Origin: Elusimicrobiota bacterium
GTDB lineage: Bacteria; CG03; SLGR01; PWQF01
DNA: 26,280 bases
Assembly: GCA_003558145.1 (NCBI GenBank)
Contig: PWMP01000226.1
Location: 1 to 26,280, forward strand
Direction of reading: 5' to 3'
Shown here in pieces: positions 16,599 through 16,698 of the stretch; position 1 is the stretch's first letter; each line of letters starts with the position of its first letter. The notes below the pieces were generated by a model. It did no database searches. It worked only from the letters and a program-made list of their open reading frames with translations, and was not told the origin of the DNA. Both the position numbers and the translations under genes were made by a program.

Positions 16599-16661
16599 AG
16601 ACATCATTGTCCGGAATTATTTCATTAAGGCGGGCTTTGCCTGGAAAGACTTCTTTGTCTT
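16599..16661 (-). ncRNA. Putative ANTAR-binding leader RNA (hairpins with A1/G4 loops) upstream of gltB
   Basis: Minus strand: AAGAC-AAAGAA-GTCTT (16661-16646) and GGAC-AATGAT-GTCT (16612-16599). The 14-mers GACAAAGAAGTCTT and GACAATGATGTCTT match at 12 of 14 positions. An ANTAR gene lies three genes upstream. Confidence 0.75.
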
Positions 16662-16669
16662 GTGTAATT

Positions 16670-16698
16670 ATGCTAATAAAGAAATTTTACTTTGTCAA
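16670..16698 (-). promoter_or_regulatory. sigma70-type promoter for the gltB operon
   Basis: TTGACA (16698-16693), 17 nt spacer, TAGCAT (16675-16670). The predicted start (about 16663) is 2-3 nt before the first ANTAR hairpin. Confidence 0.7.

Follow-up and report, generated by a model that had tools for sequence, protein, structure and literature searches.

The window analysed here, i.e. the whole stretch of 26,280 nt, comes from a salt-lake metagenome and belongs to an uncultured bacterium catalogued under the Elusimicrobiota, whose sequence was found in DNA runs only. All features and genes of interest are located on the minus strand. The subject of this work is the leader of gltB, the gene of the glutamate synthase large subunit (12078-16550, Pfam, start codon 16550-16548), in which a predicted promoter is followed by three small hairpins, together with the gene of a GAF-ANTAR protein (19305-20000, 231 aa) that lies 2.6 kb upstream of this leader on the same strand. 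The source genome (G000) is 1.42 Mb in size and 82% complete. It was compared to relatives from the same genus (G001), the same family (G002) and the same order (G010 and G006), and to more distant genomes that are named where they are needed.

The leader starts with a predicted sigma-70-like promoter (16698-16670), with TTGACA at 16698-16693, a 17-nt spacer and TAGCAT at 16675-16670, exactly where the original prediction had placed it. Hairpin 1 (16661-16646) reads AAGAC-AAAGAA-GUCUU, i.e. a 5-bp stem and a hexaloop, and hairpin 3 (16612-16599) reads GGAC-AAUGAU-GUCU, i.e. a 4-bp stem and a hexaloop. Both carry A at the first and G at the fourth loop position (A1/G4), and both had been correctly described beforehand and are conserved in relatives. 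The 33 nt that separate them (16645-16613), a spacing remarked on earlier as longer than typical, are outside every published range. The unusual distance is explained by a middle hairpin (16642-16628, AGGC-AAAGCCC-GCCU, 4-bp stem, 7-nt loop with A1/G4) that was overlooked and that lies between the two. The leader thus has two linkers, 3 nt between hairpin 1 and the middle hairpin and 15 nt between the middle hairpin and hairpin 3.

ANTAR targets have been defined as two hairpins with A1/G4 hexaloops (PMC3369931), the two being neighbours and each stem having 3 bp or more; the stems found here are 5, 4 and 4 bp long. The loops AAAGAA, AAAGCCC and AAUGAU contain A1 and G4, as does every aligned loop of the 12 leaders described below. 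The loop length is six in hairpins 1 and 3, while the middle loop is 7 nt long in all 12 leaders of the clade and 6 nt long in distant relatives. Once the middle hairpin is counted, both linkers fall within the 2-25 nt of curated actinobacterial ANTAR RNAs (PMC8164766). In 11 of the 12 leaders the end of a sigma-70-like promoter is located 3-9 nt upstream of the motif, and in the twelfth (G005) a TTGACA/TATAAA pair was recognised by eye. This short and fixed distance places the motif at the extreme 5' end of the predicted transcript.

Hairpin pairs of this kind are not conspicuous as such. A search of the 1.42-Mb genome for hairpin pairs within 40 nt, each hairpin having an A1/G4 hexaloop and a stem of 4 bp or more, gave 216 occurrences as compared to 142-176 (about 160) in local shuffles, and the fold of the whole leader is unremarkable (z = -0.9), i.e. 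thermodynamics alone does not single it out. Rfam returned no match at gathering thresholds in the entire window, no match to any curated ANTAR or glutamine-leader model, and at E <= 10 only three chance-level matches (E 2.4-7.4) to unrelated families in the region 16400-16800. Taken by itself, the bare two-hairpin pattern is not significant; it is conservation that makes the motif real.

The conservation was followed with a covariance model built from six leaders. All three hairpins are found in the gltB leaders of G001, G002, G010 and G006. Outside the seed, the model matched leaders before nitrogen genes in G003 (E 6e-6), G009 (3e-4) and G008 (6e-4), the E values being per genome, and further leaders in G019, G022 and G005; the non-seed leaders are all intergenic. 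The motif is common to 12 leaders, which represent this order and phylum and several families, and it shows compensatory changes. In these 12 leaders 94% of the cells are in standard pairs vs. 83% in shuffles, and the covariation score, a check that the original prediction had named for orthologous gltB leaders, is 0.212 vs. 0.065, a value reached by none of 500 shuffles; the alignment was fitted to the model, which biases such pair counts towards structure. With slid partners only 31-56% of the positions are paired, which argues that the pairing is real in spite of this bias. Hairpin 1 is present in all 12 leaders and two of its pairs are changed on both sides. The middle hairpin has an invariant GGC/GCC stem. 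Hairpin 3 could be aligned in 10 of the 12 leaders, three of its four pairs are changed on both sides, and in G003 it has only 3 bp.

The protein encoded at 19305-20000 had been proposed as a GAF-ANTAR protein, and the Pfam searches agree: GAF_2 covers residues 25-162 (E 5e-21, 75.7 bits) and ANTAR (PF03861) covers residues 173-224 (E 2e-19, 69.7 bits vs. a cut-off of 27.3). In other words, an ANTAR domain above the curated cut-off is preceded by an N-terminal GAF domain, as is characteristic of the class. It is the sole ANTAR-domain protein detected in the 82%-complete genome, and the leader and an ANTAR-domain protein are thus encoded in the same genome. In NCBIfam the GAF part is matched best by the corresponding GAF regions of PtsP (EI-Ntr; E 2e-16) and NifA (E 1e-12), and the PtsP GAF domains and the NifA-like Nlh1 are among its best solved relatives. 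GAF domains of the PtsP/NifA type sense the nitrogen status via glutamine or 2-oxoglutarate. By analogy, we infer that the present domain would also sense nitrogen status and that the protein would be activated under nitrogen limitation. According to Ramesh et al. no GAF-ANTAR protein had been characterised in 2012 (PMC3369931), and we found no experimental study of one in the literature searched.

The GAF-ANTAR gene is separated from the gltB leader by the genes of a LemA protein (18676-19266) and an M48 peptidase (16723-18648), both identified with Pfam, that together occupy 16723-19266. The two genes appear to have been inserted in this lineage, because in G001 and G010 the regulator gene is immediately upstream of gltB. 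Orthologs of the regulator in relatives are 47-76% identical and are often encoded beside gltB, amtB or glnA; in G008 and G024 the motif begins ~35-100 nt past the stop codon of the GAF-ANTAR gene. Remoter orthologs were found in metagenome-assembled genomes (MAGs) labelled Omnitrophota, Elusimicrobiota, Nitrospirota, Planctomycetota and others, and the covariance-model matches in such distant loci are on the strand of the regulator in 15 of 15 cases. From these comparisons the leader would be an ANTAR-type target and the GAF-ANTAR protein its most likely partner. The original prediction of an ANTAR target with a cognate GAF-ANTAR protein thus gains conservation and gene linkage, and it has to be amended in that there are three hairpins, not two with a 33-nt gap. 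A separate case is seen in G013 (contig C35, loci L015/L073), where the GAF-ANTAR ortholog is broken by four stop codons and the leader before the adjacent gdhA-like gene (named by eye from its N-terminal sequence, not with Pfam) has kept only the middle hairpin plus an unrelated hairpin. Regulator and target seem to be decaying together in this genome.

The structure that would connect the hairpins to gltB expression is a predicted helix over the ribosome-binding site. The 3' arm of hairpin 3 forms the first 4 nt of the strand GUCUUCUGU (16602-16594), which is complementary to the Shine-Dalgarno (SD) region. In the predicted fold this arm (GUCU) and the following UCUGU pair with ACAGGAGAU (16565-16557), which contains the gltB SD sequence AGGAGA (16563-16558). 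The masking helix is the predicted consensus of G000, G001, G010 and G002, with nine pairs of which none is broken, one is compensated on both sides and five are changed on one side only. Masking helix and hairpin 3 are mutually exclusive, and if hairpin 3 is enforced, even the best fold is less stable than the masked one by 4.0-5.6 kcal/mol. OFF is thus the predicted default state, and switching would require a protein that keeps hairpin 3 closed. The core SD bases are unpaired in 1-15% of the unconstrained ensemble vs. 28-46% if the three hairpins are enforced. In ANTAR targets the last hairpin either excludes a terminator or overlaps the ribosome-binding site; here the 3' arm of hairpin 3 lies within the conserved SD helix, and there is no terminator. 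Since this arm sits in a conserved helix over the SD sequence, a translational ON switch is favoured, and we consider translational control more likely than not at this leader, and several times as likely as antitermination. ANTAR proteins are known to act by antitermination or, in mycobacteria, by repressing translation (PMC8164766); translational activation by an ANTAR protein was not found in the literature searched.

Another pairing was considered and set aside. In the middle hairpin, the loop together with the 3' side, AAAGCCCG (16632-16639), is complementary to gltB codons 5-8, CGGGCUUU (16527-16534), and the minimum-energy fold of the whole leader pairs the two segments. We treat this as probably a chance effect, the complementarity not being kept in G001.

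Two further leaders of ANTAR type were found in the source genome, both on the plus strand of contig C172 (L046). The leader of a gene for an extracytoplasmic function (ECF) sigma factor (L046:1500-1590; product of 168 aa, TIGR02937 above cut-off) is a dual hexaloop, GCUC-AACGAA-GAGC and GAAC-AAUGAU-GUUC, with a 10-nt linker. The 3' arm of its second hairpin and the adjoining UCCAUC pair with GAUGGAGAAU, a helix that reaches into the start codon (free energy, dG, -21.8, z -4.0). G001, G009 and G005 have conserved the sigma-gene leader; in G005 the bases of both helix arms are changed and, by eye, the pairing is kept. In G005 and G008 the sigma gene is downstream of other motif-led nitrogen genes. 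As the last hairpin of the sigma-gene leader is near-identical to hairpin 3 of the gltB leader, the latter is probably a true ANTAR hairpin, and the combination of hairpins 1 and 3 is probably functionally meaningful.

The glnA leader (L046:2135-2260) is composed of GCGCC-AACGAC-GGCGC, an 11-nt linker and a second hairpin with the loop GAAGAC, in which G4 is present and position 1 is also a G. The second hairpin overlaps a strong terminator that is followed by eight U (dG -39.5, z -5.4). In G000, a single regulator thus seems to be confronted with leaders of three different designs. The original prediction had also named glnA and amtB as places where the same motif might be sought. The glnA leader is of ANTAR type, as just described, and an amtB leader with the motif exists in G024, while no amtB gene was found with PF00909 in G000, whose 82% completeness means that absence is not shown. 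We note that the sequence TTACTTGTATA is just upstream of the glnA leader and also precedes the glnA leader of G005; the ECF sigma factor may recognise promoters of this type.

At three loci of distant relatives (L111, L113 and L119) a stem-loop resembling hairpin 1 is succeeded, 3-4 nt later, by a GGC-hexaloop-GCC hairpin whose 3' arm is the 5' arm of an intrinsic terminator (L111: dG -27.1, z -5.6). In L111 such a leader precedes amtB and a PII gene, in L113 an ECF-like sigma gene. Hairpin 1 and the middle hairpin thus correspond to the canonical P1-P2 pair of this regulator family. In two Elusimicrobia MAGs, near GAF-ANTAR orthologs, two A1/G4 hexaloop hairpins are found 17 nt apart (L083:954-1005 and L086:3272-3322); the stem differences between the two are compensatory. 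Long linkers thus exist in nature with this regulator family.

Taken together, we consider it probable (roughly two chances in three) that the gltB leader is a three-hairpin translational ON switch operated by the GAF-ANTAR protein. The gltB mRNA would begin with an ANTAR-binding leader of three small hairpins, of which the weak hairpin 3, if no protein is bound, would lose to the longer SD-masking helix. The GAF-ANTAR protein would become active when its GAF domain reports nitrogen limitation, the likely ligand class being 2-oxoglutarate or glutamine. The active protein would bind the hairpins, keep hairpin 3 closed, weaken the masking helix and permit the translation of gltB, and translational coupling or protection of the mRNA would raise the expression of the tightly packed genes downstream. 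At least two further leaders of this genome would be under the control of this protein, i.e. that of the ECF sigma gene with its start-masking helix and that of glnA with its terminator. No paper on GAF-ANTAR proteins, or on ANTAR in connection with Omnitrophota, that describes such a switch was found in the literature searched.

Several points weigh against this reading, in addition to the model-fitted alignment. The middle loop has 7 nt where the canonical loop has 6. Linkers of 3 and 15 nt have to be set against the EutV system, where linkers of 3 and 14 nt and an extension by 20 nt failed (PMC3369931, PMC8934654). Hairpin 3 is absent from G009, G019 and G022 and poorly paired in G005, and the masking helix was not seen in G006. 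Even with hairpin 3 closed, five base pairs remain over the 5' half of the SD sequence, i.e. the predicted unmasking is partial. Finally, Rfam contains no matching family, hence no curated model could be applied.

Among the alternatives, the one that dismisses the hairpins as chance, non-regulatory features of an A/U-rich leader could point to the bare pattern counts and to the low z of the whole leader, but it is hardly credible for a motif that is conserved with compensatory changes in at least 12 genomes of several families, that keeps a fixed position relative to the promoter and that is linked to an ANTAR gene. Two other alternatives concern the question which hairpins make up the site. 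The ANTAR dimer might contact only hairpins 1 and 3, the middle hairpin being a passive spacer that shortens the 33-nt gap. Such an arrangement would fit the canonical hexaloops of hairpins 1 and 3 as opposed to the 7-nt middle loop, and the fact that hairpin 3 is almost identical to the second hairpin (P2) of the sigma-gene leader, which has just two hairpins, 10 nt apart, and a similar masking helix. It is nevertheless unlikely: the supposed spacer is conserved more strongly than any other element, its stem being invariant and its A1/G4 present in all 12 leaders; G009, G019 and G022 retain it together with hairpin 1 and without hairpin 3; its GGC-loop-GCC counterpart in distant relatives overlaps the terminator; and it resembles the recognition box of GnfR (PMC2995071). 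The reverse proposal limits the ANTAR site to hairpin 1 and the middle hairpin and treats the masking helix, together with hairpin 3, either as a translational attenuator of its own that needs no protein or as the target of another factor. We judge it quite improbable. Hairpin 1 and the middle hairpin are indeed universally conserved and are also the pair used by the distant relatives, but in the gltB-leader clade no competing structure overlaps the middle hairpin, so that binding there alone would have no obvious output. Moreover, hairpin 3 keeps its A1/G4 hexaloop wherever it can be aligned and shows compensatory stem changes, and the two-hairpin sigma-gene leader joins the same type of hairpin to a masking helix.

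The regulated step might also be transcription, with the SD helix acting as an intrinsic terminator before the start codon. Antitermination is the classic mode of ANTAR proteins and is also what the glnA leader of the same genome points to, and the sequence after the helix is A/U-rich. On the other hand, the helix is followed by AAUUUUAUG, i.e. the stem does not lead directly into a U-run, the terminator scan gave no call at this position, the interior of the helix is large and weakly paired, and the corresponding helix of the sigma gene runs into the start codon without a U-tract. Termination at gltB is therefore an improbable explanation in our opinion.

The three-hairpin translational switch at gltB can be embedded in a wider scheme, which we regard as tentative and hold with less than even confidence. 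A single GAF-ANTAR sensor would read a nitrogen metabolite directly and would act by antitermination at glnA and by translational activation at gltB and the sigma gene, turning on the glutamine synthetase/glutamate synthase (GS-GOGAT) pathway, the ECF sigma factor and glutamine-consuming biosynthesis; at gltB, the dimer would be passed from hairpin to hairpin. According to published work, one hexaloop suffices as the minimal unit of binding, and binding may be successive (PMC8934654), which makes a three-hairpin relay plausible.

ANTAR nitrogen switches are known as a kind, and the closest described systems differ from the gltB leader in several respects. In Enterococcus faecalis, the REC-ANTAR activator EutV acts on the eutP, eutG, eutS and eutA leaders via A1/G4 stem-loops, and there too the 3' arm of the last hairpin competes with the helix of the OFF state (PMC3369931, PMC8934654). 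The eut leaders have two hairpins and linkers of 5-12 nt, and induction is lost with linkers of 3 or 14 nt and with an extension by 20 nt (PMC3369931, PMC8934654), whereas the gltB leader has three hairpins, a 7-nt middle loop and linkers of 3 and 15 nt; its OFF helix is predicted to mask the ribosome-binding site without a terminator, and a GAF domain takes the place of the phosphorylated receiver as the sensor. In Geobacter sulfurreducens, GnfK/GnfR (REC-ANTAR) provides ANTAR control of nitrogen genes including amtB and glnK (PMC2995071). The GnfR box CAGGCAANGGCGCC, its proposed recognition site, reads GGC-hexaloop-GCC with A1/G4 and is close to the middle hairpin CAGGCAAAGCCCGCC (PMC2995071). 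GnfR, however, is a response regulator that acts by antitermination on the nif, glnK and amtB leaders, while we are dealing with a one-component GAF protein, a 7-nt middle loop without an overlapping terminator, and gltB, an ECF sigma gene and glnA as putative targets.

As for the target gene, the nearest precedent is Desulfotomaculum reducens, where ANTAR substrates were predicted before glutamate synthase genes, i.e. the same GOGAT class (PMC3369931); these substrates, from a Firmicute, are predicted dual hexaloops that were screened for an overlapping terminator (PMC3369931). The mycobacterial and actinobacterial ANTAR RNAs (Rv1626/PdtaR; PMC8164766) are similar in that control is at the level of translation and the motif is near the ribosome-binding site. 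There, the dual hairpin itself covers the site and binding represses, whereas at gltB binding should free the site and activate. The literature searched contained no ANTAR target with three hairpins and a 7-nt loop. What sets the gltB leader apart is the third hairpin, the 7-nt loop, the 3- and 15-nt linkers, the GAF sensor and the apparent translational ON output.

Downstream of gltB follow gltD, encoding the glutamate synthase small subunit (10639-12081), guaA (9119-10642), the genes purS, purL, purQ, purF and purC (3150-9114) and the gene of a dikinase-like protein with a PPDK_N domain (567-3137), all assigned with Pfam. The gltB and gltD open reading frames overlap by 4 nt, the gaps in the list of open reading frames from gltB downstream range from -8 to +50 nt, and the scan found no intergenic terminator-like site on the minus strand between gltB and the dikinase-like gene. 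The stretch from gltB to the dikinase-like gene would thus be read as a single operon. The original prediction regarded gltBD, guaA, the pur genes and the dikinase gene as one circuit. The tight packing agrees with this, as does G001, where guaA follows gltBD on one contig and a glnA copy is placed between them; guaA and gltB, however, are on different contigs in G006 and G009. For this reason, ANTAR control of guaA and the pur genes would be a genus-level operon fusion and not a conserved part of the regulon. Our ANTAR literature searches, none of which was aimed at purine genes, returned no paper that ties ANTAR to them.

The genes behind the motif are gltB, amtB (G024), an FMN-type glutamate synthase (G019 and G022), a glutamine-dependent nadE (G005) and a PPDK_N-domain gene (G003 and G008). 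The last is orthologous to the dikinase-like gene of the window (46% identity), which therefore is not the orphan it had been taken for: the ortholog is the first gene behind the three-hairpin motif both in G003 (L055:3-1436, minus strand) and in G008 (L057:3-1418, minus strand). The comparison places the dikinase-like gene among the conserved nitrogen genes that are linked to ANTAR. In G009 its gene is beside the ECF sigma gene and glnA, on a contig other than that of gltB, and no ANTAR motif was evident upstream of it in G009 and G006. PPDK_N covers residues 296-659 of the protein, and ~290 N-terminal and ~200 C-terminal residues are without a Pfam match. GltB, GuaA, PurL/PurQ and PurF all use glutamine as the amide donor, and the same applies to NadE (G005, L060) and to a CTP synthase (L113:5111-6715) whose gene adjoins a copy of the regulator in L113. 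Most of the genes linked to this regulator thus encode glutamine amidotransferases, which suggests to us a regulon that is organised around glutamine use.

ANTAR proteins are widespread, and only receiver-, NIT- and AmiR-type members have been studied; the locus described here offers a clean regulator-target pair for the unstudied GAF-ANTAR class. The conserved three-hairpin variant provides a test of the EutV spacing rules and of the successive-binding model, and the leaders of one genome apparently have two outputs, i.e. a terminator at glnA and the unmasking of the ribosome site at gltB and the sigma gene. The findings also suggest how uncultured bacteria with small genomes may control ammonium assimilation, and which genes, including that of the dikinase-like protein, may belong to the regulon.

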